A DNA stretch of 64,000 nt from an uncultured Candidatus Saccharibacteria bacterium (GTDB taxonomy: Bacteria > Patescibacteriota > Minisyncoccia > Minisyncoccales > Staskawiczbacteraceae). The translations under genes and the position numbers were made by a program. Shown piece after piece: positions 30,275-63,933 of the stretch; the first letter of the stretch is position 1, and every line of letters begins with the position of its first letter. The notes below the pieces were generated by a model that ran no database searches, had not been told where the DNA came from, and saw only the letters and a program-made list of their open reading frames with translations. The DNA lies in the NCBI GenBank assembly GCA_964479955.1, contig CAYZNK010000001.1, positions 144,091-208,090 on the forward strand. The letters run 5' to 3'.

Positions 30275-32533
30275 TTAGTGGGGAAGAGTTTGAAGAAACA
30301 TATCTACCTCTTCTTTTGCATCAGGCATAAGCTGTAAAAATATCATTGCTTGTTCCCTTGCTTTTTTATATTCTTTTAATTGGACATAAACAAAAGCCAA
30401 AGAGGCATAATTTTGTGCAACATCGGGTTTTCTTTTTATAATTTCTTGGTAAACAATTACAAGGCTTGAATAATCATTTATCTCAGTAAAAGCATTTGCC
30501 AGTTGATATAAATAAGTTATGCTGATGTTTCCATATTTTTCAATAAATGTCTGAAAATTTTCATTTGCTTGTTCTATTTTTTTTAAATATATTTCCGACA
30601 TAATTTTTATCCAATAGCATTCTGCTAAATCTGGCTCCAATTCAATACACTTTAGTGCCATTTTTTCCATTTCTCCATAATTTCCTGCTACCATATTAAG
30701 CTTTGCTTGTTCTATTACTACTTCTGGATGAAGGGGGGCCAGTTGCTCTGCTTTTTTAAGATAAGAGTCAGATTTTTGTAATAATAAATCTTTTTGACTT
30801 AAGTCTTTTTCTGAAGCTGCTTTTATATTTGTAAATCCTCCCAAAAAAAGCCAAAAACGAGAATATGTTGGTCTAATTTCTATTGCTTTTTCTAAAATTT
30901 TGCTTCCCATCTCTGCATATTCTAAATTTTTATCAGGATTTATTGATGCGCATAATTTTATATTTTCAACATAATGAATTATAATGTGCGCATCTAAAAA
31001 ACTGTGTTTTTTAAGAAGATTCTCAGATATTGAAAAAGATTTTTCGCACTTTTCGTTTTCCGCAAGGTCATCTGCATCGTTAACTTGTTTGTTAATTTGC
31101 AGAGGCAAAAAATTGTATTGCCATAAAAAAATCAATAAAAAAACAGATAAAACAGTTACAATAAATCTTTTCCCTTTTATTTTTTTATAATTTTTTTGAT
31201 TGTTTGCATCTTCATTTTTATGAGGATATATTAAAAACATTGAATATCCTACTATTAAATAAAATAAAAGGTATGAAGAAAATCCGTCAAAACTAAAAAA
31301 GTTTGCAGCAGAATATGCAATTATCGTAGCTTGAATTCCATGGCAAATTTTGTTATCGCTGACCTTCTTATTTTTTTGTAGGAGTAAAAAAATTGCCATA
31401 AAGAGAACAATATATACTATAGTAGCCGGAATTCCGCTAGTTACCGCAACATCCAAAAATGCATTGTGAGACCTGTCCCACCATCCTCCCCATGTTTTTG
31501 ATATATAAGGAAGGGAAGGGTCATAATGTTTATCAAATCCAATAGCAAGATTTTCTGGACCCCATCCTAAAATAGGTTTTTCTATTATTGCTTTTATAAC
31601 TACTTTCCATGCAGAAAATCTTGGGTCTGCTAAGGCTGAATCTATGGAAAGTCTGTTTTTAACTGAGTTAAAAATTCTATTGTCTTCCAAGAACTCCGGA
31701 AATATTTTTTGAGAGTTAATATAATAAACGGTAAAAAATCCAAGAACAATTAATGCCCCAAAAATAATTTTTAAAATAATAATTTTTTTAAAAACGGGTT
31801 TGTTTTTGGGTGTATTTTTAATCGGATAAAACAATAAAAAATATGTTGCTCCGGCCAGTAATCCAATATATGAGGCCCTAGACCCCGTTATTAGAATTGT
31901 AAATAAAAATAATAGAACAGCTGAAAAATAAAAGATTTTACGCCAGCGGATTTTTTCTTTTATGGCAAAGACAAATGTTATAAAAAATAGCAAAAGAATA
32001 TAAATACCCAACATTATTGGGTTTCCCATTGTTGACGGAGGCCTGTCTCCTGAGGAAATAAATATATTGCTGAATAGTCCATAGTACTGGATAAAGGCTA
32101 TTAAAGATGCCAAAACCCCTACAAGTATAGAGAAATCAAGAAGTTTTTTCCAGTCTTCTGCTTTTATACTTAAAAAAGTAAAAACAGCAAAGATTATATA
32201 AAATAAAAAATTTATCGCACCTTGTGCTCTGTAGGGAGAGCCCCATAAACTAAAATTTATGTCTTGAGAAAATATTGTTGATAATATTATTAACAGAAAA
32301 TATATCCCAAAAATCCAAAAAACTTTGTTGTTTTTGAAGCTTGGCAGGTGTAACTCGTTTCTTTTATAAAGGAATTGCCACATAAAAAGAAATAATAGAA
32401 TTGACATGACAATTCTAAAAATGATTCCTTTACCCCAATCAACAGGATGGAGATAGTTAGGACCTGCTAAAATTGGCAAAAATAAAATTATTAAAATTCC
32501 TATAAGATAAACCTTGTATAATGAATTTTGCAT
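30275..32533 (-). CDS. O-antigen ligase / Wzy_C-family polytopic membrane protein with C-terminal TPR repeats; candidate O-oligosaccharyltransferase or polymerase
   Basis: More than 10 TM helices. The Wzy_C hallmark ILITGSRASYIGLLAGA. The C-terminal roughly 250 aa form TPR-like repeats. Confidence 0.8.
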   Translation of the reverse strand: MQNSLYKVYLIGILIILFLPILAGPNYLHPVDWGKGIIFRIVMSILLFLFMWQFLYKRNELHLPSFKNNKVFWIFGIYFLLIILSTIFSQDINFSLWGSPYRAQGAINFLFYIIFAVFTFLSIKAEDWKKLLDFSILVGVLASLIAFIQYYGLFSNIFISSGDRPPSTMGNPIMLGIYILLLFFITFVFAIKEKIRWRKIFYFSAVLLFLFTILITGSRASYIGLLAGATYFLLFYPIKNTPKNKPVFKKIIILKIIFGALIVLGFFTVYYINSQKIFPEFLEDNRIFNSVKNRLSIDSALADPRFSAWKVVIKAIIEKPILGWGPENLAIGFDKHYDPSLPYISKTWGGWWDRSHNAFLDVAVTSGIPATIVYIVLFMAIFLLLQKNKKVSDNKICHGIQATIIAYSAANFFSFDGFSSYLLFYLIVGYSMFLIYPHKNEDANNQKNYKKIKGKRFIVTVLSVFLLIFLWQYNFLPLQINKQVNDADDLAENEKCEKSFSISENLLKKHSFLDAHIIIHYVENIKLCASINPDKNLEYAEMGSKILEKAIEIRPTYSRFWLFLGGFTNIKAASEKDLSQKDLLLQKSDSYLKKAEQLAPLHPEVVIEQAKLNMVAGNYGEMEKMALKCIELEPDLAECYWIKIMSEIYLKKIEQANENFQTFIEKYGNISITYLYQLANAFTEINDYSSLVIVYQEIIKRKPDVAQNYASLAFVYVQLKEYKKAREQAMIFLQLMPDAKEEVDMFLQTLPH

Positions 32534-32539
32534 GGTTTT

Positions 32540-32698
32540 TTAAAATAAAGGATAAATTAACGGAGCTATTGCCGAGCTTTCTGCAAAAATTATCAATAAT
32601 CCGCAAATTAGCAGAAATATTATAATAGGGGCCAGCCACCATTTTTTTCTGGTTTTTAAAAAATCCCATATTTCTCTGACAATCAAAATTTTGCTCAT
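32540..32698 (-). CDS. DUF5989-like small membrane protein (52 aa), missed by the ORF track
   Basis: Reverse-strand translation MSKILIVREIWDFLKTRKKWWLAPIIIFLLICGLLIIFAESSAIAPLIYPLF matches the conserved small protein found next to SxtJ-like and carbamoyltransferase genes (SxtK-like). Confidence 0.55.
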   Translation of the reverse strand: MSKILIVREIWDFLKTRKKWWLAPIIIFLLICGLLIIFAESSAIAPLIYPLF

Positions 32699-32718
32699 GT
32701 ATTTTTATTTAAGGTATT

Positions 32719-33135
32719 TCAAAATTGTTTTTTATATTCTTCTTTTTTTATATCAGCAGTTTTTACAACTGTCCAATAACTTTTGGATTTTTTATCTATT
32801 TTTATATTCAGGAGGTCTTTGCCTGATAATTTTAAAAATAAAGAAATGGGAGTTAATATTATAAAAAATAATATAATCAAAATCATGGATGATATTATTA
32901 TCCCAATAATGATTCCTATCGTCATCCATGTTTTTTGCAGGGGCTTTAACACAGATGGCAGAAACAAGGATAATAGTAAAACAGCAATAGATGCTAAAAA
33001 AAGCAACAGAGAATAATTATATTTTTTAAGAAAAATAAAATATACAGCAAAAATAACCATTAAGGATACTAAAACAAGAGAAAATTTTGATATCTCCTTT
33101 TTATCGCTTTTTATATTTTTTATACTATCTAACAT
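32719..33135 (-). CDS. SxtJ-family small membrane protein
   Basis: Two TM hairpins with the conserved LKPLQKTWM...LTPISLFLKLSGKDLLNIKIDKKSKSYW. Syntenic with the carbamoyltransferase. Confidence 0.7.
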   Translation of the reverse strand: MLDSIKNIKSDKKEISKFSLVLVSLMVIFAVYFIFLKKYNYSLLLFLASIAVLLLSLFLPSVLKPLQKTWMTIGIIIGIIISSMILIILFFIILTPISLFLKLSGKDLLNIKIDKKSKSYWTVVKTADIKKEEYKKQF

Positions 33136-33148
33136 TATTTTAATTTTT

Positions 33149-36460: not shown

Positions 36461-36925
36461 ATGGTCAAATCAATTAAAAAAATAGTGGTCACTTCCGGAT
36501 TTTTTAATCCTATGCATATTGGGCATATTAACTTGTTCAAAGAAGCAAAAAGCCTTGGGGATTTTTTAGTTGTAATAGTAAACAACGATGAGCAAGTAAA
36601 ACTAAAAGGAAGTTTTCCTTTTATGTCAGCCCAAGAGAGGTCAGAGATAATAAAGGCGTTAAAATATGTTGATGAAGTTTTTTTATCGGAAGATTTTTTT
36701 ATTGACGGAAAGGAAGTTCCAATTCCAAAATCTTTGCAGATAATAGCTGAAAGGTACCCCGGAGAGTTAATTTTTGCAAAAGGCGGGGACAGGGATATAA
36801 ATCATATTCCTTGGCAAGAAAAAGAAGTTTGCGATAAATTTAAAATAAAAGTAGTTACGAATGTTGGGGGAGATAAAATCCAAAGTTCTTCCTGGCTAAT
36901 ATCTAAGGTTGTCACTAAAAATTGA
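36461..36925 (+). CDS. Cytidylyltransferase-like nucleotidyltransferase (TagD/RfaE-II superfamily, HxGH)
   Basis: VVTSGFFNPMHIGHINLF HxGH motif. 154 aa. Confidence 0.8.
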   Translation: MVKSIKKIVVTSGFFNPMHIGHINLFKEAKSLGDFLVVIVNNDEQVKLKGSFPFMSAQERSEIIKALKYVDEVFLSEDFFIDGKEVPIPKSLQIIAERYPGELIFAKGGDRDINHIPWQEKEVCDKFKIKVVTNVGGDKIQSSSWLISKVVTKN

Positions 36926-39258: not shown

Positions 39259-40360
39259 TTACGACAAAAAAGAATGGGCAAGCCCTTACAATGAGTTTAA
39301 TTCCATAAAAATTCTTTATTTCAAAGAGCACTTGGATGGGATAATAAAAGGCAAATTTTTGCCTCCTATCACTGTTGATACAGACCCTACCAATTTATGT
39401 AATTTTAATTGTATTTGGTGCAATGCCAAAGGATTCAGAAAAGAGTCGGCTTCCTCAATGCCCCGTGAGCATTTGCTTAAATTGGCAGATTTTTATAAAG
39501 AATGGGGGGTCAAATCAACCTGTGTGGCAGGCGGAGGAGAGCCAATGGCAAATCCGGGTTTTGCTGATTTTTTAAAAAGATTGCATAAAAACGGAATAAA
39601 AATAGGGGTAATATCAAATGGCAGTTTATTGGATCAAAAGAATGCAGAAGCTGTTGTAAAATATGCAAGTTGGTGCGGAATTTCAATGGATGCGGGAAGT
39701 AGCAGTGTTTTTATGAAAATAAAAGGTTTGAAAGACAAAACAATGTTTGATAAGGTTGTTGCCAATATAAAAAGAATGGTTGCTTTAAAAAGAAAGTTAA
39801 AATCAAACGTGGAAATTACTTACAAATACCTTTTGCATCCCTATAATGTTAAAGATATCTACAAGGCTGCAAAGCTTGCAAAATCCTTAGGAATGAATAC
39901 CTTTCATTTAAGGCCTGTTTGCTGGGATAATTTATATAATCAAGAGCATTCAGAGCCCATAAATTTTTCTGATTATACAGAGTTAATAGAGAAAGAAATA
40001 GAAAAGGCCAAGAAATTGGATGACAAGAATTTTAAGTTTTATAGCGTTAGGCATAAGTTTGGAGAAAATTTTGAAAGAAAAATTAATTTTAAAAAATGTT
40101 TGGCAACGCCATTATTGGCAACTTTTGGAGCGGATGGGAACGTTCATTTATGTTTCGACGTGAGGGGTAAAAAAGAGTGGGTGCTATGCAGTCATTATCC
40201 TGACCCGCGTAAAATTTTAAAAGTTTGGGGCAGTGCTCGTCATAAAAAAATTATAGACAGCATCAATGTTAAAAAATGCCCCAGGTGCACCTTTGGGCCG
40301 TATAACGAGATAATAGAAAAGGCGGTAATTGAAGACAAAATGTTTTTGGATTTTATTTAA
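39245..40360 (+). CDS. Radical SAM enzyme (Cys-rich C-terminal auxiliary-cluster region), putative sugar-modifying enzyme
   Basis: CNFNCIWC CX3CX2C motif and additional C-terminal cysteines (CLATPL, CFDVRG, CPRCTF). Confidence 0.85.
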   Translation: MKKNNYDKKEWASPYNEFNSIKILYFKEHLDGIIKGKFLPPITVDTDPTNLCNFNCIWCNAKGFRKESASSMPREHLLKLADFYKEWGVKSTCVAGGGEPMANPGFADFLKRLHKNGIKIGVISNGSLLDQKNAEAVVKYASWCGISMDAGSSSVFMKIKGLKDKTMFDKVVANIKRMVALKRKLKSNVEITYKYLLHPYNVKDIYKAAKLAKSLGMNTFHLRPVCWDNLYNQEHSEPINFSDYTELIEKEIEKAKKLDDKNFKFYSVRHKFGENFERKINFKKCLATPLLATFGADGNVHLCFDVRGKKEWVLCSHYPDPRKILKVWGSARHKKIIDSINVKKCPRCTFGPYNEIIEKAVIEDKMFLDFI

Positions 40361-40367
40361 ATCTTGT

Positions 40368-41438
40368 ATGAAAATATTTTACGCGGCTTTTAAATATGAA
40401 TATGGGAACGTTGAGCGCGGTTTTAGTTTTGAACATTATAATTTTTATGATACGCTGGTAAAAATGAATGGAGGAGAAAACAGCGTGATTTATTTTCCTG
40501 TTGATCAAATGTTAAAGGAGCACGGCAGAGATAGAATGAATAGCCTTCTTTTAGATATTGTTTTCAAGGAAAAACCGGATTTATGCTTCTTTTTTCTTGT
40601 TGGAGAAGAAATAAAAAAAGAAACAATAGGGGATATTACCAAAAAATCTGGAGCATTAACTTTAAATTGGTTTGCTGATGACCATTGGAAGTTTGATGTT
40701 TTTTCTAAGCATTGGGCCCCATGTTTTAGCTGGATTGTTACAACAGACCCTTTGGCTGTTGGGAAATATTATAAAATAGGTTACAAAAATGTAATACATA
40801 GCCAGTGGGCCTGCAACCATTTTTTGTGCAAGCCCTTGGATTTACCTAAAATTTATGATGTCACTTTTCTGGGCCAACCTCACGGCAATAGAAAAAAAAT
40901 AGTAAAAAAAATCAAAAAAGCCGGGATACGCATAGAGTGTTGGGGATGGGGATGGCCTCGAGGATGTGTTTCGGAAGATAAAATGGTTGAAATTTTTTGT
41001 CAGAGTAAAATAAATCTTGGTCTGACTAATAGTTCCTTTGAAGGACTCTTGAAGTCATTATTCAGAATATTTTTAAAAAAATCCACTGACAAAAAGATAA
41101 AGATTAGTAATCCTTTCCACTGGATAGGAAATTTAAAAATGATTTTGAATAAACGGAAAAATCAATTAAAGGGAAGAAATTATGATATTCCCGGATGCAG
41201 GTCTTTTTTGCTTACTCAGGATGCAGATGATTTAAAGAAGCGCTATCAAGATGGTAAGGAAATAGTTATTTTTAAAGATGATGATGACCTTATAAAAAAG
41301 ATAAAATTTTATTTAAAAAACGAGAAAGAAAGAGAAAATATTGCCAGAGTAGGGTATGAAAGGACTATTAAAGAACATACTTATGAAAAAAGGTTTAACG
41401 AAATTTTTAATATAATGGAATTAAATAAAAATGGATAA
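40368..41438 (+). CDS. CgeB-like / DUF3880 glycosyltransferase (GT1-like fold)
   Basis: CgeB-family architecture with a C-terminal GT-B half (YERTIKEHTYEKRFNEIF). Confidence 0.6.
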   Translation: MKIFYAAFKYEYGNVERGFSFEHYNFYDTLVKMNGGENSVIYFPVDQMLKEHGRDRMNSLLLDIVFKEKPDLCFFFLVGEEIKKETIGDITKKSGALTLNWFADDHWKFDVFSKHWAPCFSWIVTTDPLAVGKYYKIGYKNVIHSQWACNHFLCKPLDLPKIYDVTFLGQPHGNRKKIVKKIKKAGIRIECWGWGWPRGCVSEDKMVEIFCQSKINLGLTNSSFEGLLKSLFRIFLKKSTDKKIKISNPFHWIGNLKMILNKRKNQLKGRNYDIPGCRSFLLTQDADDLKKRYQDGKEIVIFKDDDDLIKKIKFYLKNEKERENIARVGYERTIKEHTYEKRFNEIFNIMELNKNG

Positions 41439-52621: not shown

Positions 52622-53748
52622 TGGAAAATAAAATTTTATTAAGCATTGTTATACCAACTTACAATAGGGCTTTATATATAGCTAATCTTTTAAATTGTAT
52701 CACTTCACAAATTAAAGAATTTAAAGATTCTATTGAAATATGTATTTCAAATAATTGCTCTACTGACAACACAAGAGAGGTTATTATAAATTTTTCTAAA
52801 AAATATCCGGAGCTTATAAAGTATAACGAAAACGAAAAAAATTTGGGATTTAACAAAAATATGTTTAAGGTAATTCATATGCCAAAAGGTGAGTTTGTTT
52901 GGTTTTTTTGTGACGACGACACTATTGCAAATAATGGAATAAAAAAAGTTATAGATTTTTTAAAAAATAGCCAAAAAGAAAATACAGGATTTGTGAGTGT
53001 GGCAACAAGGTCATATTTTATTGATAAACAAACAGGCAAACAAATAACTTATTCCAAAAGTATAGAAGAGAATAAACCCAATATTTATGAGTTAGATTTA
53101 AAAGATATTATGGGACAAACAATTCCTACATCGGTTTTTACTCCGTCAATGATTTTTAATAATTATTATTTAAAAAAAATTCTTGAGGAAGAAAAAGAAT
53201 TATTAAATAAAGCGGTAGAAGCAGGAGAATATATACAAACCTTTTTATATCGTTTATTGTTTTTAAAATATCCAACTTTAAAAGCGTTGCGTTTTAATGA
53301 AGAGGTGATTAATGACGAGGCCCATCTTTATAAGTTTTACCTTGACGATATTTTTCAATTACACTATATTACTTGGACAAAGCTGTGCGACATTTTGATT
53401 AAAAATAAATACGCAAACGACTATTATAAAAAAATAATTGAGAAAGATAAAAAGAGAGCGATGAAGACTGTTATTATTGAAATGGGTTTAATGAGGTGTT
53501 TTGCTGCGTTTAATTATTCTTCTTTTTCTGGGTGTATCAAAATGTTTTTTAGAGAGGCGCCATTTTTCCGTGCGTTGTTATTTTCCATCTTTTTTATTAT
53601 TTTTAATATCATTCCTCCATTTATCCTAAGAAATTTATACAAAACCTATATCAAAATAAGACATAAAAAAAACTGGAAGAAAACATGGCTTTATATTACT
53701 GTTAAAAATTCAGAGATGGCCAAGGGTAGCCGCAGATTATATGATTAA
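52621..53748 (+). CDS. Glycosyltransferase family 2
   Basis: LSIVIPTYNRALYIANLL...SNNCSTDNT, and FCDDDT (DxD). Confidence 0.8.
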   Translation: MENKILLSIVIPTYNRALYIANLLNCITSQIKEFKDSIEICISNNCSTDNTREVIINFSKKYPELIKYNENEKNLGFNKNMFKVIHMPKGEFVWFFCDDDTIANNGIKKVIDFLKNSQKENTGFVSVATRSYFIDKQTGKQITYSKSIEENKPNIYELDLKDIMGQTIPTSVFTPSMIFNNYYLKKILEEEKELLNKAVEAGEYIQTFLYRLLFLKYPTLKALRFNEEVINDEAHLYKFYLDDIFQLHYITWTKLCDILIKNKYANDYYKKIIEKDKKRAMKTVIIEMGLMRCFAAFNYSSFSGCIKMFFREAPFFRALLFSIFFIIFNIIPPFILRNLYKTYIKIRHKKNWKKTWLYITVKNSEMAKGSRRLYD

Positions 53749-55901: not shown

Positions 55902-57011
55902 ATGAAAATAGCAATTGTGGCTTCAAGATTTCCACCACAAGGAGAGGTTGGTGGAATTGAAATAGCCAGTCAAAACATATCAAATCAATTATCAAAGATG
56001 GGAAACAATGTTTTTATTGTTGCTTTTGGCAAAGAAAAAAATATAGAAATTTTAGATAATAATTTAACTATATATAGACTGTCGTATCCTAAAATAAAAA
56101 TTTTAGGCAATTTAATTTTTTGGATTAAAATTTTTTTTGCGTTAAGAAAAATAAATCCAGACATTGTCCATTGTCAAACAATACAAATGGGCTTGCCGTG
56201 TTTTTTATTTAAAAAAATTTATAAAAAGCCATATATTGTTTGGTGTCATGGTTTTGATGTTTATTTTTTATGGAAATTTAAAAAAATTATTTCTAAAATT
56301 GTTTTAAATTCGGCAAATGCTGTTGTTGCGCTTACAGAAGATATGAAAAAAGAGATTAAAAAGAATTTTAAAAATGAAATTTTAGTATTGCCAAATGGAG
56401 TTGATTTAGAAAAATTTAAGGGGTTTTCAAAAGAAATTGTTCATGATAAGCTCAAAATACCAATTGAGGAAAAAGTAATTCTTTTTGTGGGGGAGCTTAA
56501 AAAAGTAAAGGGACTAGAGTATTTGATTGAAGCTTTTAAAAAAATAAATCAAAGATTTGTAAATTCTAAATTATTATTAGTAGGAGGCGGGTTAGAAAAA
56601 GAAAACTTAGAGAATATTGTTAAAAAAAACAATTTGCAAAACAAGATTATTTTTGTGGGCAGAATTGCAAATCAAGAAGTTTGTGAATATATGATAGGAT
56701 CTGATGTATTTGTTTTACCAAGCTTATCAGAAGGTTTTCCATTAGTTATTTTAGAGGCAATGGCATCTGGTCTTCCTATTGTTGCAACAAAAGTAAGAGG
56801 TTTGTCTGAAATATTAAAAGATAATAAGAATGGGTTTTTAGTTGACCCAAAAAATTCAGAAGATCTTTTTCAAAGAATTTTGATTCTTTTAGAAAACGAC
56901 CAGTTAAGAAAAGAAATATCTAATTTAAATAAAAATCAGGCAAAAGAATATAGTTGGGAAAAAATTACAAAAGAAATTGAAAAAATATATTTAAAAGCAA
57001 TATCTAAATAA
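55902..57011 (+). CDS. Glycosyltransferase family 4
   Basis: GT4 GT-B fold with C-terminal FVLPSLSEGFPLVILEAMASGLPIVAT. Confidence 0.9.
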   Translation: MKIAIVASRFPPQGEVGGIEIASQNISNQLSKMGNNVFIVAFGKEKNIEILDNNLTIYRLSYPKIKILGNLIFWIKIFFALRKINPDIVHCQTIQMGLPCFLFKKIYKKPYIVWCHGFDVYFLWKFKKIISKIVLNSANAVVALTEDMKKEIKKNFKNEILVLPNGVDLEKFKGFSKEIVHDKLKIPIEEKVILFVGELKKVKGLEYLIEAFKKINQRFVNSKLLLVGGGLEKENLENIVKKNNLQNKIIFVGRIANQEVCEYMIGSDVFVLPSLSEGFPLVILEAMASGLPIVATKVRGLSEILKDNKNGFLVDPKNSEDLFQRILILLENDQLRKEISNLNKNQAKEYSWEKITKEIEKIYLKAISK

Positions 57012-57012
57012 T

Positions 57013-57924
57013 ATGAAAATATTAGTTACCGGCGGAGCCGGATTTATTGGTTCTCATTTAGTAAATGAACTTATAGAACAGGGGAATGAAGTTGTGATAA
57101 TTGATAATTTGTCTACAGGTAAAAAAGAAAATATAAATTCAAAAGCAAAATTTTATAATCTTGATATTTGCGAATTTGAAAAAATTAAACCTGTTTTTAA
57201 TGGCATAGATTTTGTTTTTCATTTAGCTGCTATACCAAGGGTTCCTGTTTCAGTTCAAAATCCAATTGAAACCTCAAAAGTAAATATTTTAGGAACAATC
57301 AATGTTTTTAAGGCATCTGCAGAGGCCAATGTTAAAAGAGTTGTTTTTGCTTCTTCTTCGTCTGTTTACGGTGACCAAAAAACTTTGCCCTTAAAAGAGG
57401 ATATGATATCAAGTCCAAAAAGCCCTTATGCTCTTCAAAAATCAGTTGGAGAGCAGTTTGCAAAATTGTTCAATAATCTCTATAATATACCAATAGTTTC
57501 TTTGAGATATTTTAATGTTTATGGCCCAAGAATAGACTTTAACTCTGAATATAGTTTGGTTTTGGGAAAATTTTTAAAATTAAAAAGCCAGTCAAAACCC
57601 CTAACAGTTTTCGGTACGGGTAGTCAAACAAGGGGTTTTTGCTTTATTGATGATGTTGTAAAAGCTAATATTGCAGCCGCAACATCCAAAAATATAAAAG
57701 GAGGAGAGGTTATAAATGTGGGAAGCACTAAATCTTATTCAATCAATTATTTGGCAGAGTTTATAGGGGGCAAAATTAAATACCTGCCTGAAAGGGAAGG
57801 CGATGTAATGCACACGAAAGCTGATATATCTTTGGCAAAAAAACTTCTTTTATGGCAACCCGAAGTTTCTTTTGACGACGGGGTTAAAAGGGTAATAAAT
57901 TGGTTTGAAAAATTATACAGTTAA
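57013..57924 (+). CDS. NAD-dependent epimerase/dehydratase (UDP-hexose 4-epimerase-like); paralog of the gene at 8573
   Basis: MKILVTGGAGFIGSHL...DNLSTGKKENIN and a YALQKSVGEQF YxxxK motif. Its N-terminus is nearly identical to that of the 8573 gene product. Confidence 0.85.
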   Translation: MKILVTGGAGFIGSHLVNELIEQGNEVVIIDNLSTGKKENINSKAKFYNLDICEFEKIKPVFNGIDFVFHLAAIPRVPVSVQNPIETSKVNILGTINVFKASAEANVKRVVFASSSSVYGDQKTLPLKEDMISSPKSPYALQKSVGEQFAKLFNNLYNIPIVSLRYFNVYGPRIDFNSEYSLVLGKFLKLKSQSKPLTVFGTGSQTRGFCFIDDVVKANIAAATSKNIKGGEVINVGSTKSYSINYLAEFIGGKIKYLPEREGDVMHTKADISLAKKLLLWQPEVSFDDGVKRVINWFEKLYS

Positions 57925-57942
57925 ATTAAACAAAATAAAAAT

Positions 57943-58773
57943 ATGGAGAAATCTTTAAAAGATATAAAAGTAGGCATAATAGGGGTTGGAATGGTTGGTG
58001 GGGCGCTGAAAAGATATTTTGAGAAAAAAGGAATTACACCCTTTGCCTATGACAAGGGCCAAAATTTAGGGTCTATGAATAATGTTAACCAAGCAGACAT
58101 GATTTTTATTTGCGTGCCAACTCCCTTTGATAAAGAAAAACAAGGTTTTGACCTGTCTTATGTAAAAGAAGCATGTAATAATATTAAAGGTGAAAAGATC
58201 ATAATTATAAAATCCACAGTTGTTCCGGGAACTACAGAGAATTTTCAGAAAGAATACCCTCAACACAAATTTTTATTTAATCCAGAATTTTTAACAGAGC
58301 TTACCGCTGACCAGGACATGGGTTATCCTGATAGGCAAATCGTAGGATATACAAAAGAAAGTTATAATGTGGCGGGAGATTTGCTCTTAATGCTCCCGTT
58401 GGCTCCTTTTGAAAAAACTATGCCTGCCAAAGAAGCCGAGCTAGTCAAATATTTTGGAAATACCTGGTTTGCTGTAAAAGTTGCCTTTGCAAATCAAATG
58501 TATGACTTGTGCCAAAAAATAGGCGTAAATTATGATACTATAATGGAGTCTGCTTCAGCTGATAAAAGAATCGGAAGGTCTCATTTAGAAGTATGGCATA
58601 AAGAATATAGAGGATATGGGGGGAAATGTTTGCCAAAGGATATTAGAGCTCTGATACAATACGCAAAGGCAAATGGAATTGATTTGACACTTCATAGAAC
58701 AGCAGAAGACATCAATAACAAGCTTATGGAAGACCAAAATATTCAGGACCCTGAAAAATTTTCAAAAAGATAA
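57943..58773 (+). CDS. UDP-glucose/GDP-mannose dehydrogenase family protein, short form lacking the C-terminal UDP-binding domain
   Basis: N-terminal GIIGVGMVGGAL NAD-binding motif and the catalytic-Cys motif YGGKCLPKDIRAL. Only 276 aa. Confidence 0.7.
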   Translation: MEKSLKDIKVGIIGVGMVGGALKRYFEKKGITPFAYDKGQNLGSMNNVNQADMIFICVPTPFDKEKQGFDLSYVKEACNNIKGEKIIIIKSTVVPGTTENFQKEYPQHKFLFNPEFLTELTADQDMGYPDRQIVGYTKESYNVAGDLLLMLPLAPFEKTMPAKEAELVKYFGNTWFAVKVAFANQMYDLCQKIGVNYDTIMESASADKRIGRSHLEVWHKEYRGYGGKCLPKDIRALIQYAKANGIDLTLHRTAEDINNKLMEDQNIQDPEKFSKR

Positions 58774-58779
58774 CTTTAA

Positions 58780-59952
58780 ATGCAGAATAAAACGAAGGCA
58801 ATTTTTATAACTTTCAATGGAATTTCGGATCCGCTTGGGCAGTCGCAGGTTCTGCCATATTTGCAGGGATTAAGCAAAAGCGGAATAAAATTTTATTTGG
58901 TGAGCTTTGAAAAAAATATTAAAGATTCAGCAAAATTTTTTAAAATTTTATCCGAGGCGGGCATAAATTGGTATAGACTGAAATATTTTAAATTTCTTAA
59001 ACTTGGAATGGCCTTGAATATTTCGCAATGTTTTTTCTGCGTTAGTTATTTGTTAATTTTAAAGAAAGCAAGAATTATTCATTCCAGGTCATATCTTCCG
59101 ATATTTTCTATTTTTTTTATTAAAAAAATATTTAAGGCAAAAATTATTTTTGATATGAGAGGATTTTGGCCAGAAGAGTTAATAGATGGAAAGCGCATTA
59201 AAAAAAGTTCATTTTTTTATAAAATACTGAAATATTTGGAGAAAAAGAGTATTTTGGCATCGGACTATATAATAACTCTTACTCCGGAGGCAAAAAAAAT
59301 AATTGAGGACAATTATAGCCAAAAGAAAGTGGTATGGATGCCAACATGTGTTGACCCAGATAAATTTAGAAATAAAAGCGCAGTATCTCTTGAAAAAAGA
59401 TTTACAATGGTTTATGCTGGCAGTTTGTGGAGTTTTTATGATTTAGGTTCTTGTGCAGATTTTTTTAATATTTTAAAGACAAAGATTTCCGGAGCGCATT
59501 TTTTAGTTTTGGGAAATAATAACGAGCAGAAGTTAGACAAGCTTTTTTTAGAAAAAGGTTTGAAAAAAGAAGAATACACCATTATGAATTTAAGGCCATT
59601 GGATGTTCCTGGATATCTTTTGTCAGCAGACTTAGGAATATCTTTTAGATATGATTTTTATTCTCAAAAAGCGGCTTTTCCAACAAAACTTGCAGAATAC
59701 CTTATTGCTGGTTTGCCCGTGCTTATAAATACTCCCTCTGATTTTATTAAAGAATTTATAGAATCAAACAAAATTGGGGTTGTTGTGAATAATTTTGACA
59801 AAGAATCTTTTGAAAAAGCGGCTGATAAATTATTGGTCCTGCTGTCTGATAAAAATTTAAAACAAAGATGCGAGATTGCGTCCCAGAAATATCTATCTAA
59901 GAATGTTTGTGTTGAAAAATATACGGAAGTTTATCAAGAATTAACAAAATAA
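58780..59952 (+). CDS. Glycosyltransferase family 4
   Basis: GT-B fold with a C-terminal EYLIAGLPVLINTPSDF-type region. Confidence 0.8.
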   Translation: MQNKTKAIFITFNGISDPLGQSQVLPYLQGLSKSGIKFYLVSFEKNIKDSAKFFKILSEAGINWYRLKYFKFLKLGMALNISQCFFCVSYLLILKKARIIHSRSYLPIFSIFFIKKIFKAKIIFDMRGFWPEELIDGKRIKKSSFFYKILKYLEKKSILASDYIITLTPEAKKIIEDNYSQKKVVWMPTCVDPDKFRNKSAVSLEKRFTMVYAGSLWSFYDLGSCADFFNILKTKISGAHFLVLGNNNEQKLDKLFLEKGLKKEEYTIMNLRPLDVPGYLLSADLGISFRYDFYSQKAAFPTKLAEYLIAGLPVLINTPSDFIKEFIESNKIGVVVNNFDKESFEKAADKLLVLLSDKNLKQRCEIASQKYLSKNVCVEKYTEVYQELTK

Positions 59953-59957
59953 TATTT

Positions 59958-60491
59958 ATGATATTTCATAAAAATAAAATTGAAGGTCTTTATACGATAG
60001 AGCAGGATTTAAAATCAGATGAAAGGGGATATTTTGTCCGAAATTTTTGTTATAAAGAAATTTTAAAAGCAACCGGTGTTGAGTTCAATATAAAGCAAAT
60101 AAACCAGTCGCTTAGCAAAAAGCAGGGAACCTTAAGGGGGGTGCATTTTCAGATTTACCCCAAGGCTGAAAATAAAATAGTGCAGTGCTTAGCAGGAAAA
60201 ATTTTTGATGTTGCTCTTGATTTAAGGGAAGGGTCTGCCACTTACGGACAGTGGGTGGGAGAAGAATTATCTGCTGAAAATAAAAAACTGTTTTTTATAC
60301 CGAAAGGATTTGCTCACGGTTTTATATCTTTAGCGGATAATTGTTTAATACAATATTATTTATCCGAATTTTATTCTCCAGAATATGAAAGAGGTATTCG
60401 TTGGGATGATGCTTATTTTGGCATTAAATGGCCGGTAAAACCTTTGGTTATTTCTGAAAAAGATAAAAATTGGCCGTTAATCAAAGAATGA
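59958..60491 (+). CDS. rmlC: dTDP-4-dehydrorhamnose 3,5-epimerase (cupin)
   Basis: RGVHFQ...QCLAGKIFDVALDLREGSATYGQW...IPKGFAHGF matches the RmlC family. Confidence 0.9.
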   Translation: MIFHKNKIEGLYTIEQDLKSDERGYFVRNFCYKEILKATGVEFNIKQINQSLSKKQGTLRGVHFQIYPKAENKIVQCLAGKIFDVALDLREGSATYGQWVGEELSAENKKLFFIPKGFAHGFISLADNCLIQYYLSEFYSPEYERGIRWDDAYFGIKWPVKPLVISEKDKNWPLIKE

Positions 60492-61357
60492 AAAAAATTT
60501 TATTAACAGGAAAGACAGGACAGTTGGCCGGAGAAATTATAAAGGACGCAAAAAAATTTGGGTTTAAAGTTTTTGCTTTTGACAAACAGAATTTAGATAT
60601 ACAAGATAAGAATGAAGTTGAAAAAAAAATCAGAAAAATTAAACCAAACATACTTATAAATACTGCCGCTTATCATGTTCTTTCCTCATGCGAAGAGAAT
60701 CCTCCCTCTGCAATGAACGTTAATTTTTTAGCAGTTGCAAATTTGGCTATGTTATGCAAAAAATATAAAATAAAATTTATAACCTATAGCACAGATTATG
60801 TTTTTGACGGCAAAAAAGACTCTCCCTACAAAGAAAATGACACTCCAAATCCTTTGCAAATTTACGGAATTTCAAAACTTGCCGGCGAATATGCAGCTAT
60901 TAATATCTATCCTAAAAATAGTTTTATTATAAGAACCTGCGGGCTTTACGGTGGAAAAACGGGGAGTCCGGAAAAAGGCGGAAATTTTGTTTTAAATATA
61001 AGAAAGCAGGCCCTTAGAAAGGATAGTATAGAAATCAGTTCAGAGCAGATTGTGAGCCCCACTTATGCAGGAGACTTGAGCAAGGCAACACTAAAACTTA
61101 TTAGTAAAAAAATTGCAAAACCCGGGATATATCATCTTGTAAACAAAGGATTTTGCAGTTGGCATGAGTTTGCAGAGGAAATATTTAATTTATCAGGCAT
61201 TAACACAAAAATTAAGCCAATTGACAGAAAAGGAAGTTTTGAAAACATCAAAAAGCCAAAATTTTCCGCCTTGGAAAATACCAGGGCAAAATTAATAGGT
61301 ATAGGCCTCCCTCATTGGAAAGAAGGGTTGAAAGCCTATTTTAAGGAAATTTTATAG
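60489..61357 (+). CDS. rmlD: dTDP-4-dehydrorhamnose reductase
   Basis: MKKILLTGKTGQLAGEI...INTAAYHVLSSCEENP...YSTDYVFDG...YGISKLAGE (RmlD family). Start chosen at ATG 60489, overlapping the rmlC stop. Confidence 0.9.
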
Positions 61358-61361
61358 ATTT

Positions 61362-62459
61362 ATGAGAGTATTATTTTTAGCCGCTTATTCTGAAATAGCA
61401 GCGGCTAGCAGAATTAAGGTTTACCAGCTTTTGCCTTTATTAGAGAAAAAGGGAATAAAATGCAAGGTCATTTGTTTTACTCCGTCTTTTGTTTTCAAAA
61501 TAAGACAAGCTTCTGTTGCAAACAGGAATTTATTGCTGGTTTATTATGCTTTTCTTTACCTTATCAGGCCGCTTAAAACTGTTCTGGCTATTTTATTGGC
61601 TCCGGGATTTGATATTGTTTATATTCAAGAACCCATAATCCCATTTGGCATGGAAAGAATTTTGAAAATAGCAAACAAAAATATAGTTTTTTTGTTTACG
61701 GACGCTATTTTTTTAGGACCCCAAAAAAAAGATAAATTTTTGGAAAAGGCAAGAAAAAAGATTTTATCAAAATATTGGAAAAGAATATCAAATGTTTCCA
61801 AATACTGTCTGGTTGAAAATGATTATAATAAGGAAGCTGTATTGAAATTTTGTCCTAATGTAGAAAAAATAGCAGGGCCAATGGATACAGATAGGTATAT
61901 TGTAAAGGAATATAAAAAACATTCCGGCCCTATTGTTATCGGATGGGTTGGAACTGTTTTTACTTCAAAATATTTATATGGAATTAAAAGCGCCCTTCAA
62001 AATTTGGCAAAAAAACATGATATTGTTTTAAGAGTAATGGAGGCGACAAAAGATTTTAATATTAAGGGGGTAGTTTGTGAGAAAAAAACATGGAAAAAAG
62101 AAATAGAGCTTGATGAAGTTTCAAAATTTGACATTGGAATTATGCCTTTGCCAGATGATGAATGGACTAGGGGAAAAGGGGGGTTTAAGCTTTTGCAGTA
62201 TATGTCTCTGGGAGTTTGCGCTGTTGCTTCTCCTGTTGGAATCAATAAGGAAATAGTAGATGACGAAATAAACGGATTTTTAGCAAAAGACCAAGAAGAA
62301 TGGGAGCAAAAACTATCCAGACTAATTGAAGATGAAAATCTGCGCCGTAAAATGGGGGAAAATGCCAGAGCTACAATTGAAAATAGATATTCTTTGCAAA
62401 AAGCTATTGAAAAAATATTAAAAATTTTTAACCAAATTCAAAGCAATGGAAATTTTTAA
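61362..62459 (+). CDS. Glycosyltransferase family 4
   Basis: GT-B fold with C-terminal LQYMSLGVCAVASPVGINKEIVDDEINGFL (EX7E-like). Confidence 0.8.
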   Translation: MRVLFLAAYSEIAAASRIKVYQLLPLLEKKGIKCKVICFTPSFVFKIRQASVANRNLLLVYYAFLYLIRPLKTVLAILLAPGFDIVYIQEPIIPFGMERILKIANKNIVFLFTDAIFLGPQKKDKFLEKARKKILSKYWKRISNVSKYCLVENDYNKEAVLKFCPNVEKIAGPMDTDRYIVKEYKKHSGPIVIGWVGTVFTSKYLYGIKSALQNLAKKHDIVLRVMEATKDFNIKGVVCEKKTWKKEIELDEVSKFDIGIMPLPDDEWTRGKGGFKLLQYMSLGVCAVASPVGINKEIVDDEINGFLAKDQEEWEQKLSRLIEDENLRRKMGENARATIENRYSLQKAIEKILKIFNQIQSNGNF

Positions 62460-63933
62460 AAACAAATTATTTTCAACAATAACAACGCTTTTTTTAATTT
62501 TTGTTTTACTGGCAATATTTTATTTTGACAAGGCCTTATTGGTTGGCCTTGTTTTTGTCGGGGTTCTTATAATACTTACTTTTTTAACGCTTAAAAAGTA
62601 CAATTTATTGGATAAGCGAGTCTCTATAGCCTTCTGGTTTGGGTTTTTAATTCATTTTATTTTAGCTTTGCTTATGTATTACGCTAATTTTCATCCTTTG
62701 GGGCAGGGAGATTTTGTGTTGTACCACCAAATAGCAGAAAACGTGGCGAATAGAATTCATTCAGGAGTTTTTTATTTGGACGGTCTTAATTATCTGCACT
62801 ATTATCCTGTGTTAATTGGCGCAATTTATAGCTTTACAATACCCAAAATGATAATAGGCCAAATTTTATCAGCCTGGCTGGCAGGTATTTCTGTTTTGCT
62901 TGCTTATTTTCTGATGATTGAAATTGGAAGCTCAAAAAAAATGGCTTTCTTGGTCAGCGCAATCATTTGTTTTTATCCAAGTTTTGTTTATTTTGGAAGC
63001 TTAATGCTTAAAGACACTGTTATTTTACCCTTAGTTCTTTCTGGATTACTATTGTGCGTAAGAATGTTTAAAAATTACGAACCCTTAAAATTTTTTTCTT
63101 TTTTTATTATTTTAACTTTTATAATCCATCTAAGGTTTTACGTGGGTTTTGCATTAATGTTTAGTTTTATTATCTGTTGGTTTTTGATTTCTAACCTAAA
63201 AATTAAAAAAAGAATTGCATATGGTTTTATTTTTATTTTTATTTTAGGTTTTTCTCCATATATTATAGGATATGGTTATTATGGATTAACACCCCTTAAA
63301 GGATATTTAAACAAAGAAACAATAATAACCTACAGGGAAATCGTTTATGCCCCAACTCCAGCAATTTCTGAAGCAAATCCGGCTTCAGGATCAGGTTTTG
63401 GATTTAATATTGGCTCAATTTTTGGCATAAAGCCGGAAGGATCCAGTTCAGGTACGGGCACAGGGTCGTCTTTTATTGTAAAAACAGGCCTTGAAGAAAA
63501 CAACGCAAAATTCATTGAAAATTATTTTATTTCTTTTGTGTATGCATTCTTAGGTCCCTTTCCATGGCAATTAAAAAGTTTAAAACACTTGCTTTTTCTT
63601 ACAGAGACAGTACCGTGGTACTTTTTTCTTTACTTGATTTTATCGGGAATATCAAAATCATTTAAGACAGCAGGATTTTTTGAAACAATAAATCGTTATA
63701 AATTTTCGTTGATTCTTTTGCTGTTTTCTGCTATGGCTTTGGGGGCTCTTTCTCTTTTTATAAATAACTTTGGGATTATCGTCAGAATAAGGATACCCGC
63801 AGTTATTGCTATTTTATGCCTTCTTGGAATTGATAAAAATATGGATAATATAATTAACAAATTAACGGGATATTTTTATGAAAAAAAATTTGTTAAATTT
63901 TTTGGTTTGCCCGGATTGCAAGGGAAGTCTTAA
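62446..63933 (+). CDS. Polytopic membrane protein, GT-C fold glycosyltransferase-like (ArnT/PMT/oligosaccharyltransferase-like)
   Basis: About 12 TM helices with DxD-like loop motifs. Terminal gene of the glycan cluster. Confidence 0.5.
   Translation: MEIFKNKLFSTITTLFLIFVLLAIFYFDKALLVGLVFVGVLIILTFLTLKKYNLLDKRVSIAFWFGFLIHFILALLMYYANFHPLGQGDFVLYHQIAENVANRIHSGVFYLDGLNYLHYYPVLIGAIYSFTIPKMIIGQILSAWLAGISVLLAYFLMIEIGSSKKMAFLVSAIICFYPSFVYFGSLMLKDTVILPLVLSGLLLCVRMFKNYEPLKFFSFFIILTFIIHLRFYVGFALMFSFIICWFLISNLKIKKRIAYGFIFIFILGFSPYIIGYGYYGLTPLKGYLNKETIITYREIVYAPTPAISEANPASGSGFGFNIGSIFGIKPEGSSSGTGTGSSFIVKTGLEENNAKFIENYFISFVYAFLGPFPWQLKSLKHLLFLTETVPWYFFLYLILSGISKSFKTAGFFETINRYKFSLILLLFSAMALGALSLFINNFGIIVRIRIPAVIAILCLLGIDKNMDNIINKLTGYFYEKKFVKFFGLPGLQGKS

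Follow-up and report, generated by a model that had tools for sequence, protein, structure and literature searches.

A probable cell-envelope glycan locus of at least 34 kb in Patescibacteria DNA, with recurrent cassettes of tailoring enzymes

What does a bacterium with a reduced genome build with some 34 kb of sugar-modifying genes, and does it build one glycan or two? This question is raised by positions 30275–63933 of contig CAYZNK010000001.1 as presented here in a 64-kb stretch, the window; all coordinates are positions in that window, and genes are called by their first position (Table 1). A preliminary description, made from the sequence, had read the interval as encoding two distinct, heavily modified glycans. 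We assigned the genes to families by Pfam and NCBIfam scans, using the NCBIfam equivalog cut-offs for specificity, and consider it likely that the interval belongs to a functional cell-envelope glycan locus, 34 kb or more in length, of a member of the Patescibacteria, which consists of recurrent cassettes and directs the synthesis of a Wzx-dependent, lipid-linked and heavily tailored glycan. The locus is of an ordinary kind, namely a Wzx-dependent surface-glycan locus with extracytoplasmic steps mediated by a glycosyltransferase (GT) of the GT-C fold; what is less ordinary is its concentration of conserved, uncharacterised tailoring enzymes. That richness in tailoring enzymes had been recognised in the preliminary description, and nearly all of the families named there were recovered by the two scans. 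Three genes had been left out: those for a Wzy_C protein with TPR repeats (30275–32533), an SxtJ-like protein (32719) and a GT-C enzyme (62446–63933).

The 33 open reading frames (ORFs) of the interval occupy 98.3% of its bases and form four strand blocks of alternating direction: A (minus strand, 36369 to 30275), B (plus, 36461 to 44862), C (minus, 49998 to 44851) and D (plus, from 50137 to beyond 64000). These correspond to the four alternating gene groups first described, and they are tightly packed, adjacent genes mostly overlapping or being spaced by 1–18 nt. There are no frameshifts or internal stops among the 33 ORFs, all of which are full length relative to their homologues; the genes are neither scattered nor pseudogenes. 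The longest ORF for the first gene of block C is 49279–50118, but start-codon analysis favours ATG 49998 as the true start, so that a very AT-rich divergent region of 138 nt separates blocks C and D and the apparent 18-nt gap between them is an artefact of choosing the longest ORF. The G+C content is 0.304 in the cluster, compared with 0.367 in the 30 kb upstream. Low G+C contents are usual in surface-glycan loci. Scans of the full 64 kb for tRNA genes and Rfam families gave no match.

Comparison with the loci of relatives (numbered L002, L004, L087 and so on) shows the locus to be a mosaic, its cassettes recurring elsewhere apart from one another. Block D is syntenic with L004/L005 at 50–90% identity (Wzx2, 66%; GT2, 60%; methyltransferase, 66%; the two GT4 enzymes, 50% and 56%; the 4-epimerase-type protein SDR303, 81%; the short UDP-glucose dehydrogenase (UGDH), 90%; GT1, 83%; GT-C, 78%), with L090 at 62–81%, including RmlC and RmlD, and with L006 at 51–60%, where RmlABCD fill the slot of RmlCD in the window. 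GT 61362 keeps its position in L004 (83%) and L006 (60%), and methyltransferase 55183 has an orthologue in L090 (68%). The core of block B, from Wzx1 through the short-chain dehydrogenase/reductase (SDR) 38404, the radical S-adenosylmethionine (SAM) enzyme and the CgeB-like GT to a methyltransferase and a GT2, recurs in L087 at 50–80% identity (Wzx1, 51%; SDR 38404, in the same position, 64%; methyltransferase 42291, 50%); GT2 41431 has orthologues in L002, L003 and L087. In L087 this core lies beside a GT-C gene, followed by a WecA-type (Glycos_transf_4) initiating transferase, a CapD-like gene and a PG_binding_1 protein. Block C is found beside a GT-C gene in L008 (68–75% identity), and L091 contains both the carbamoyltransferase–SxtJ–GDSL trio of block A and the trio of SDR303, short UGDH and GT4 of block D. 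A 26%-identical homologue of the Wzy_C-TPR protein occurs near a transketolase (TK) cassette in L011. The order of cassettes varies among the relatives, whose loci of the same type extend over at least 20 kb, and the locus in the window is larger mainly because several recurrent cassettes stand side by side. Its 33.7 kb would make up about 2.6–4.8% of an assumed genome of 0.7–1.3 Mb. Since relatives hold loci of at least 20 kb, this investment of about 34 kb is large yet not clearly exceptional for the lineage, and to call it extraordinary, as had been done, overstates the case.

The only species-representative genomes that carry a close homologue of the GT-C protein are two metagenome-assembled genomes (MAGs) of Candidatus Saccharibacteria (52% and 49% identity); further close homologues bear the labels "Parcubacteria group", Staskawiczbacteria or Nealsonbacteria. 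An origin of the cluster in the Patescibacteria, or Candidate Phyla Radiation (CPR), is thus well supported by sequence similarity, and the earlier supposition of a host with a reduced genome is reasonable, the nearest labelled relatives, Saccharibacteria and "Parcubacteria group" MAGs, both being Patescibacteria. The cluster is not bounded at 63933, because the end of the window cuts the next conserved gene: the last 123 nt match the start of a 361-aa methyltransferase that lies downstream of the GT-C gene in L004, so the cluster continues beyond the window. In relatives the GT-C gene is followed by a Trm112-like methyltransferase and an AsnB-like amidotransferase, and in L006 then by an SDR, a GT4, a Bac_transf initiating transferase, an acetyltransferase, an aminotransferase and a CapD/PglF-like dehydratase. 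By analogy with these relatives, the initiating phosphoglycosyltransferase probably lies beyond the window end. In the literature that we searched, an incomplete library, there was no description of glycan clusters in Saccharibacteria.

Every step of the pathway proposed here is drawn from gene families. The two Wzx flippases of the preliminary description (36909 and 51146) were recognised by their Polysacc_synt/Polysacc_synt_3 domains and 13–14 transmembrane helices, and its count of at least seven GTs was reached with one CgeB-like (40329), three GT2 (41431, 50137 and 52621), two GT4 (55902 and 58780) and one GT1-like enzyme (61362). These seven GT-A/GT-B transferases would assemble the glycan on a polyprenyl carrier, and the two flippases would export lipid-linked intermediates. 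Outside the membrane, the Wzy_C-TPR protein would polymerise or ligate the glycan, and the GT-C enzyme would graft a lipid-linked unit onto an acceptor. This might be a polymer of the cell wall or else a protein of the surface, for which the Thr/Ser-rich PG-binding protein encoded next door is an example. Wzy_C (PF04932) marks the superfamily of O-antigen ligases, polymerases and O-oligosaccharyltransferases, which makes the protein 30275 a candidate extracytoplasmic polymerase or ligase.

The Pfam match of the protein 62446 itself is non-significant (PMT_2, E=0.006), and its homologues carry PF02366/PF13231 (PMT/PMT_2), some of them being named GT39. Its AlphaFold2 (AF2) model has a pLDDT of 88.9, and the top 19 Foldseek matches are all GT-C enzymes (PglB, Pmt4, Pmt1/2, AglB, STT3, AftB, ALG12, DPY19 and ArnT), at weak values of E (8e-3 to 1) and TM-score (0.3–0.48). 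Asp89, in the first outer loop, is an invariant column. An enzyme of this fold would use a lipid-linked donor outside the membrane. Some GT-C homologues (P0034, P0036, P0038 and P0042) carry a C-terminal GT4 domain, that of P0034 being 29% identical to GT4 55902 of the window; such fusions hint at functional coupling of the GT-C enzyme with a GT4.

These genes bear directly on whether one or two glycans are made. The possibility that two separate glycans are modified and exported independently, one by block B with Wzx1 and the other by block D with Wzx2, is a real one, which we nevertheless judge to be less than even in its chances. It accords with the location of the two Wzx genes in different strand blocks and with the occurrence of blocks B and D apart from each other in different relatives (L087 versus L004/L090), each with its own flippase and transferases. 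However, L087 has two Wzx genes but, over the 21 kb read, a single gene each for GT-C and for an initiating transferase, and the window contains a single Wzy_C protein and a single GT-C protein beside its two Wzx. Moreover, in streptococci and lactococci a Wzx and a GT-C enzyme serve to attach a separately flipped unit to another chain, as its side chain or as a second chain, so that a single composite polymer results (reviewed in PMC9574508). Two distinct glycans do not, therefore, follow from two flippases, as had been supposed at first. The rhamnose wall loci of Gram-positive cocci (GacI/J/K/L; WpsA-J of Lactococcus lactis) resemble the present locus in their rml genes, in the combination of Wzx and GT-C, in a Wzy-like protein and in modular, variable side-chain genes (PMC9574508). 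The window differs from them in having no ABC exporter, RgpA-F-type rhamnosyltransferase set or LCP ligase, and no GacI/GtrB-like GT2 was recognised among the two of its three GT2s that were compared with solved structures.

Among the possible acceptors of the lipid-linked glycan, protein has to be considered separately. Bordering block A is a 1209-aa secreted PG_binding_1 protein, 26555, with 13% Thr and 11% Ser, whose gene has a G+C content of 0.42 versus about 0.30 in the glycan cluster; it is a candidate surface-layer or acceptor protein, and only tentatively a member of the system. The locus might thus serve O-glycosylation of an S-layer-like protein, the Wzy_C-TPR protein acting as an O-oligosaccharyltransferase onto this neighbour as in Paenibacillus (WsfB) and Tannerella. 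The Wzy_C domain is common to O-oligosaccharyltransferases of the PglL/WsfB type, and in L006 and L087, too, a PG_binding_1 protein borders the locus. Nevertheless, Wzy_C sequences do not separate polymerase, ligase and O-oligosaccharyltransferase, the side and orientation of the surface protein vary between loci, and no ABC transporter of the type found in the slg clusters of Geobacillus and Paenibacillus is present. We regard protein glycosylation as rather unlikely. The likeness to the slg clusters and to O-glycosylation in Tannerella forsythia extends to the rml genes, to methyltransferases and to decoration of the carbamoyl/amide type, and the S-layer O-glycan of Tannerella is known to contain methylated and carbamoyl/amide-modified sugars (PMC4030854). 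The window differs in its other tailoring enzymes, the TK cassette, the radical SAM enzyme and the short UGDH.

Similar remarks apply to the Wzx/Wzy loci for O-antigens, capsules and exopolysaccharides. These share with the window sugar-nucleotide cassettes, GT2 and GT4 enzymes, MOP/Wzx flippases, a Wzy_C-superfamily protein, a G+C content below that of the flanks and a mosaic gene content between relatives, whereas the window has no Wzz or initiating transferase, has two flippases together with a GT-C enzyme, and has a Wzy_C protein with TPR repeats. In general, CPR bacteria are described as having neither an outer membrane nor lipopolysaccharide (LPS). A comparison with S-layer and O-antigen clusters had been suggested in the preliminary description; the resemblance to both, as to the rhamnose wall loci, is evident, but defining features of each kind are missing within the window, where no initiating transferase, Wzz or ABC exporter is present and no GtrB-like GT2 was recognised.

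The tailoring functions of block C centre on a TK-like enzyme split into an N-terminal, thiamine diphosphate (ThDP)-binding half (TKn) and a C-terminal half (TKc). The cytidylyltransferase-like protein 48455 scores 247.5 bits against TIGR02623 (cut-off 300.25) versus 40 bits against rmlA_long, and the dehydratase-like SDR 47523 scores 211 bits against the dTDP-glucose dehydratase model and 197 bits against that of CDP-glucose dehydratase (cut-off 278), both under cut-off. Most of the cassette-linked dehydratase homologues have an Asp-Lys motif, (T/S)(T/S)DK(V/C)Y, which we take to be a signature of CDP-glucose 4,6-dehydratases (1rkx and 1wvg), RmlB having TDEVYG; the RmlB of L006 carries TDEVYG. 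No member of the DegT_DnrJ_EryC1 family (pyridoxamine-phosphate-dependent 3-dehydrase, E1/RfbH) was found in Pfam scans of the window, so block C does not represent a classical 3,6-dideoxyhexose route and its substrate would be a 6-deoxy sugar.

Scanning metagenomes with TKn brought up 216 relatives, and 80 loci were retained. TKc directly follows TKn in all 57 loci with room for it, and a homologue of the glucose-1-phosphate (Glc-1-P) cytidylyltransferase lies within 6 kb of the TK pair in 20 of the 27 loci that extend for 3 kb or more to either side, although these loci include closely related organisms and the counts are not independent events. Usually the TK loci also have a 4,6-dehydratase-like SDR and a second SDR, homologues of SDR 46555 flanking the TK pair in many of them, and two gene orders occur. 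TKn keeps the equivalents of H26, H66, H100, D155, N185 and H261 of Escherichia coli TktA, and TKc retains the cofactor-activating Glu (EQ motif). The acceptor-site motif GEDGxSHQ, which is common to transketolase and DXS, is replaced in TKc by GPHDFTHY; among 61 cassette homologues compared, the family consensus is YGxxG(Y)(T/S)HH, versus GEDGASHQ in the split TK 6yaj.

From these genes we infer that block C makes a CDP-activated, C-branched or otherwise C2-modified 6-deoxyhexose, which is then reduced by an SDR and possibly methylated. Glc-1-P would be converted to CDP-glucose by 48455 and to CDP-4-keto-6-deoxyglucose by the Asp-Lys dehydratase 47523; the split TK (45765/44851) would modify this CDP-keto sugar, most likely by adding a two-carbon hydroxyacetyl unit; and SDR 46555 and methyltransferase 49279 would reduce and methylate the product, respectively. 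According to a 2025 review (PMC12247030), transfer of hydroxyacetyl onto a keto sugar by split-gene transketolases has been proposed but never shown, the proposed cases being miharamycin, amipurimycin and 13 Streptomyces sequences, none of them characterised. The split-gene architecture of block C matches these Streptomyces candidates, and the presence of a ThDP enzyme beside a CDP-glucose 4,6-dehydratase and a reductase recalls YerE/YerF, which lie by ddh genes (PMC12247030). The window differs from these ThDP C-branching systems (YerE and the pyruvate-dehydrogenase-E1-like alpha/beta enzymes) in that its cassette belongs to surface-glycan loci of CPR and environmental bacteria, not to an antibiotic cluster, has no 3-dehydrase (E1/E3) and shows a distinct acceptor-site motif. 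In the same incomplete library we found no description of a TK cassette in polysaccharide loci.

The simpler explanation of block C would be that the split TK is a housekeeping enzyme of the pentose phosphate pathway, in the operon by chance, and that the CDP branch yields an ordinary 6-deoxyhexose. Its nearest solved structure is indeed a genuine split transketolase (6yaj, 178 bits), and the ThDP and donor-site residues are canonical. Against this, the acceptor motif is replaced family-wide, the TK genes overlap or abut the cassette SDR, and the linkage to the cytidylyltransferase holds in most of the well-flanked loci (20 of 27), in two gene orders; we consider a housekeeping role improbable.

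In block D, the enzyme 57943 had been called a truncated UGDH. It possesses the GxGxxG NAD domain, the central dimerisation domain and the catalytic Cys in a GGxCxxKD motif, as in UGDH, TuaD and AglM, but the whole C-terminal UDP-sugar-binding domain (PF03720) is absent: aligned with the 446-aa UGDH 4a7p, the ORF ends at a point corresponding to about residue 301, and 6 nt separate it from the following gene. The best 120 homologues listed are 69–86% identical and mostly 271–294 aa long, many of them from CPR genomes and none with a PF03720 annotation, and the copy in L004, the closest syntenic relative, is 90% identical. It turns out that the supposed truncation is a conserved two-domain family of about 276 aa, found across CPR genomes; a pseudogene or remnant is ruled out by the intact GxGxxG and catalytic Cys and by the conservation of this family. 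The gene adjoins a GT4 and a 4-epimerase-type SDR (57013; TviC 183 bits, GalE 182 bits, under cut-off), a homologue of which directly precedes the short UGDH gene in each of L004, L090 and L091. The three genes (57013–59952) may make and transfer a sugar of the uronic-acid type. Two homologues of the short UGDH (P0178 and P0204; 451–457 aa) are fused to an adenosine-phosphosulfate (APS)-kinase domain (PF01583), hinting at a link to sulfation or nucleotide chemistry.

The start of the radical SAM gene 39245 of block B overlaps the stop of the short SDR gene 38404 both in the window and in L087, and in Brocadiaceae a 259-aa SDR-like gene takes the position of this SDR. A CgeB-like GT is near the radical SAM gene in the window, in L087, where it adjoins that gene (71% identity), and in Brocadiaceae alike (L088/L089, 33%); the corresponding identity is 58% in L003. 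The best 120 radical SAM homologues listed are 50–80% identical and come from CPR bacteria, Deltaproteobacteria, Brocadiaceae and Pacearchaeota. Foldseek searches with the AF2 model (pLDDT 89) gave DesII (8hzv; TM-score 0.66–0.68) as the top match, with BlsE, viperin and peptide maturases also among the matches. DesII, BlsE and viperin all act on nucleotide-linked sugars or nucleotides. The model points to a radical sugar-remodelling step coupled to a reductase, and this pair, with its overlapping genes, resembles what we take to be the dehydratase-plus-reductase logic of AprD4 (a radical SAM dehydratase) and AprD3 (its reductase). Together 39245 and 38404 would remodel a sugar by a reaction of the deoxygenation or deamination type, and the CgeB-like GT 40329 would transfer the product. 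DesII, a TDP-4-amino-4,6-dideoxyglucose lyase, is the best structural match; the window enzyme differs from it in having only 12–13% sequence identity to it and no aminotransferase partner in block B. The LPS-like locus of Brocadiaceae that contains a radical SAM homologue also has, at L088/L089 8973–13075, two B12-binding radical SAM enzymes, a GT10 and a HepT/MNT toxin-antitoxin-like pair.

Taken jointly, a first TK-type C-branching at the cell surface (hydroxyacetyl onto CDP-4-keto-6-deoxyglucose), a UGDH that works without its UDP domain and an unusual sugar made by a DesII-like enzyme and an SDR form a combination that we put forward as doubtful in its entirety. If it were true, block C would represent an uncharacterised enzyme family widespread in environmental bacteria, and CPR glycans would contain sugar types not yet described.

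Rhamnose is the most securely assigned of the sugars, RmlC and RmlD both exceeding their equivalog cut-offs while RmlA and RmlB, as had been noted from the start, are not in the window. The simplest reading is that RmlA and RmlB are elsewhere in the genome and supply the 4-keto-6-deoxy substrate from which RmlC and RmlD would complete L-rhamnose. More speculatively, the cytidylyltransferase and dehydratase of block C might also feed RmlCD; in L028, RmlC/D-like genes are directly beside a cassette of the block C type. Two SDRs considered as RmlB, 8573–9496 and 47523, were both ruled out by their motifs. In L090, RmlA and RmlB follow RmlD on the opposite strand, and an extra Methyltransf_13/14 gene (6999–8210; sugar C-methyltransferase type) precedes RmlC; both features are absent from the window.

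Methyl and carbamoyl groups would complete the tailoring: the glycan would be decorated by the methyltransferases, five or six in number, and by the carbamoyltransferase, in partnership with the SxtJ and SGNH proteins. Of six methyltransferases announced by the preliminary description, five are inside the interval (42291, 49279, 53763, 54521 and 55183) and the sixth (63878) is cut by the window end; only two, not three, are of the Methyltransf_24 (CmcI/O-methyltransferase) type. Its five SDRs (38404, 43019, 46555, 47523 and 57013) were all recovered, as were the cytidylyltransferase, the radical SAM enzyme, the split transketolase, the CDP-hexose branch and the carbamoyltransferase; the SGNH hydrolase is marginal (Lipase_GDSL_2, 32.7 bits versus a cut-off of 32.9, with a weak AlgX-like match too), and this protein, 34957, may be either an esterase or an O-acyl transferase. 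The carbamoyltransferase 33149 reaches 149 bits with the NodU model, under cut-off, and its homologue in L091 is 64% identical; given that it has no predicted transmembrane helix it is probably cytoplasmic, its SxtJ and SGNH partners being membrane-borne. The small nucleotidyltransferase 36461 matches rfaE domain II (65 bits) and TagD (48 bits), both under cut-off, and its best PDB matches are ethanolamine-phosphate and glycerol-3-phosphate cytidylyltransferases; its substrate could be an alcohol phosphate or of the heptose-1-phosphate type. The protein 43939 had no PDB or NCBIfam match.

The suggestion that the locus is a decaying, horizontally acquired island with many non-functional genes, for which one might cite its low G+C content relative to the upstream DNA, its mosaic structure, the supposed truncation of the UGDH and the differing order of cassettes among relatives, is extremely improbable in view of the 33 intact, full-length ORFs, the 69–90% identity of the short UGDH to at least 120 proteins of near-equal length, the 50–80% identity of the radical SAM enzyme across phyla and the commonness of low G+C in such loci.

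Several observations weigh against our view of a functional, Wzx-dependent glycan locus. Firstly, RmlC and RmlD are the only proteins that pass equivalog cut-offs, so the other substrate assignments are made at the level of homology. No RmlA- or RmlB-type gene is in the window, where the sole NTP_transferase is cytidylyltransferase-like and no SDR has TDEVYG. The Pfam scan of the window ORFs revealed no initiating phosphoglycosyltransferase of the Bac_transf or Glycos_transf_4 type; no Wzz or polysaccharide co-polymerase (PCP) chain-length regulator was matched among the scanned ORFs, and no LCP ligase is in the window. Secondly, the structural matches of the GT-C protein are weak, and a polyprenyl-phosphate GT2 that might serve as its partner was not recognisable in the window, two of the three GT2s having been compared with solved structures: GT2 50137 is SpsA-like, with no GtrB or dolichyl-phosphate mannose synthase (DPMS) among its PDB matches, and GT2 41431 is SpsA/chondroitin-synthase-like, with GtrB at only 25.6 bits in the PDB search, so that neither was supported as a partner of the GtrB/GacI type. 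The analogy with the Wzx and GT-C systems of streptococci and lactococci is incomplete because no GtrB-like partner was recognised. Thirdly, the linkage of the TK genes was counted in part among close relatives. Finally, the scans for promoters and terminators are uninformative, operon ends being unmarked in this AT-rich DNA. Promoter-like sites numbered 118 in 30000–49999 versus 89.8 (sd 10.4) in shuffled controls, a modest excess at most, and 95 versus 96.0 in 44001–64000, which is no excess; terminator-like sites numbered 23 versus 13.1 and 10 versus 11.3 in the same two segments. Since these scans mark no operon boundaries, co-transcription is argued from spacing and strand only.

Those CPR bacteria that have been cultivated are found attached to other microbes, and there has been hardly any study of the chemistry of their surfaces; the glycosylation of Saccharibacteria is called "unexplored" in a recent study of that group (bioRxiv 10.1101/2024.11.25.624915). 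The present locus and those of its relatives show that small CPR genomes keep large, modular and strain-variable glycan loci, of a kind that would be expected to influence how hosts are recognised, how susceptible the cells are to phages and how visible they are to immune systems. Three of its enzyme sets are conserved but uncharacterised, namely the CDP-hexose plus split-TK cassette, the short UGDH of two domains and the DesII-like radical SAM enzyme with its SDR, and all three are open to tests in vitro that need no culture of the organism. The first bears on an open question, as branching of a keto sugar has yet to be demonstrated for any transketolase (PMC12247030).

Table 1. Predicted genes of the glycan locus and its borders, in order of position in the window (TM, transmembrane)
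Position	Strand	Predicted product	Length (aa)	Basis
26555..30184	+	Flanking secreted PG_binding_1 protein, rich in Thr/Ala/Ser/Gly	1209	Pfam, composition, signal-like N-terminus
30275..32533	-	Wzy_C membrane protein with C-terminal TPR repeats, about 11 TM helices	752	PF04932 80.4 bits, TPR matches
32719..33135	-	SxtJ-like small membrane protein, 3 TM helices, carbamoyltransferase partner	138	PF19588 32.5 bits
33149..34960	-	NodU/CmcH-family O-carbamoyltransferase	603	Carbam_trans_N 368.9 bits, Carbam_trans_C 237.3 bits
34957..36369	-	Membrane-anchored GDSL/SGNH protein, 3 N-terminal TM helices	470	Lipase_GDSL_2
36461..36925	+	Small cytidylyl/adenylyl-transferase-like protein	154	CTP_transf_like 63 bits
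36909..38411	+	Wzx/MOP flippase 1, 14 TM helices	500	Polysacc_synt 112 bits
38404..39258	+	Short SDR, proposed reductase partner of radical SAM enzyme	284	Epimerase 133 bits
39245..40360	+	Radical SAM enzyme, CX3CX2C and more conserved Cys	371	Pfam Radical_SAM
40329..41438	+	CgeB-like GT (Glyco_trans_1_2)	369	PF13524 99 bits
41431..42294	+	GT2, SpsA/chondroitin-synthase-like	287	Pfam 130 bits
42291..43034	+	Class I SAM methyltransferase	247	Methyltransf_23 53 bits
43019..43948	+	SDR of epimerase/dehydratase family	309	Epimerase 155 bits; NCBIfam matches all under cut-off
43939..44862	+	Protein with weak DUF2334 (deacetylase-like) hint	307	DUF2334 19.8 bits, under cut-off
44851..45762	-	Split transketolase-like C-terminal (Pyr + C) half, TKc	303	Pfam; PDB 6yaj 178 bits
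45765..46571	-	Split transketolase-like N-terminal (ThDP/PP) half, TKn	268	Transketolase_N 148 bits
46555..47508	-	SDR, SSSEYG motif, proposed ketoreductase/epimerase of cassette	317	Pfam, PDB neighbours, motif
47523..48494	-	NDP-hexose 4,6-dehydratase-like SDR, SSDKAYG motif	323	NCBIfam, motif
48455..49261	-	Glucose-1-phosphate cytidylyltransferase-like protein	268	TIGR02623 247.5 bits
49279..49998	-	Methyltransf_24 (CmcI/O-methyltransferase-like) methyltransferase, first gene of block C		Pfam 88 bits
50137..51129	+	GT2, two C-terminal TM helices, SpsA-like	330	Pfam
51146..52621	+	Wzx/MOP flippase 2, 13 TM helices	491	Pfam
52621..53748	+	GT2	375	Pfam; 70% identical in L090, 60% in L004
53763..54482	+	Class I SAM methyltransferase	239	Methyltransf_11 91.6 bits; orthologues L004, L090
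54521..55168	+	Methyltransf_24 methyltransferase	215	Pfam 45 bits
55183..55899	+	Divergent class I methyltransferase	238	Methyltransf_11 36 bits, partial match
55902..57011	+	GT4	369	Glycos_transf_1 164 bits; best NCBIfam TuaC, under cut-off
57013..57924	+	GalE/TviC/WbpP-like sugar-nucleotide 4-epimerase-type SDR (SDR303), SSSSVYG	303	NCBIfam, motif
57943..58773	+	Two-domain UGDH-family dehydrogenase	276	Pfam; GVGMVG and GYGGKCLPKD motifs
58780..59952	+	GT4, third of SDR–short UGDH–GT4 trio	390	Pfam; same position L090, L091
59958..60491	+	RmlC, dTDP-4-dehydrorhamnose 3,5-epimerase		TIGR01221 189.2 bits (cut-off 155.75)
60470..61357	+	RmlD, dTDP-4-dehydrorhamnose reductase		TIGR01214 274.6 bits (cut-off 224.05)
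61362..62459	+	GT1/GT4-like GT, 3' end overlaps GT-C gene	365	Pfam, C-terminal part only
62446..63933	+	GT-C-fold integral membrane GT, about 11 TM helices	495	Homologues, AF2 model, Foldseek
63878..64000	+	N-terminus (Zn-ribbon/Trm112-like) of further methyltransferase, cut by window end		Translation

The convergent genes 43939–44862 (plus) and 44851–45762 (minus), where blocks B and C meet, share 12 nt at their 3' ends; a terminator-like hairpin was not found at 44851–44862 itself, and the nearest plus-strand site, 44594–44619, is inside gene 43939–44862. The upstream part of the window contains housekeeping genes in 814–16938 (FtsZ, the anaerobic ribonucleotide reductase NrdD and its activase, ComEC, an HtrA-like protease and ClpB), and a second, small glycan-related set at 7236–11571, 20 kb upstream, which includes a DUF6938 protein (439 aa), a GalE-like SDR (307 aa), a GT4 (340 aa) and a 345-aa protein with weak hints of a TIM-barrel glycosidase. 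Between 18546 and 23088 are two large Lamin-tail (LTD) proteins, probably surface proteins, the second of which also has a right-handed beta-helix. Directly upstream of the PG_binding_1 gene are those for an extracytoplasmic function (ECF) sigma factor (25008–25505) and for a 263-aa protein with only a weak DUF5667 match, possibly an anti-sigma factor.

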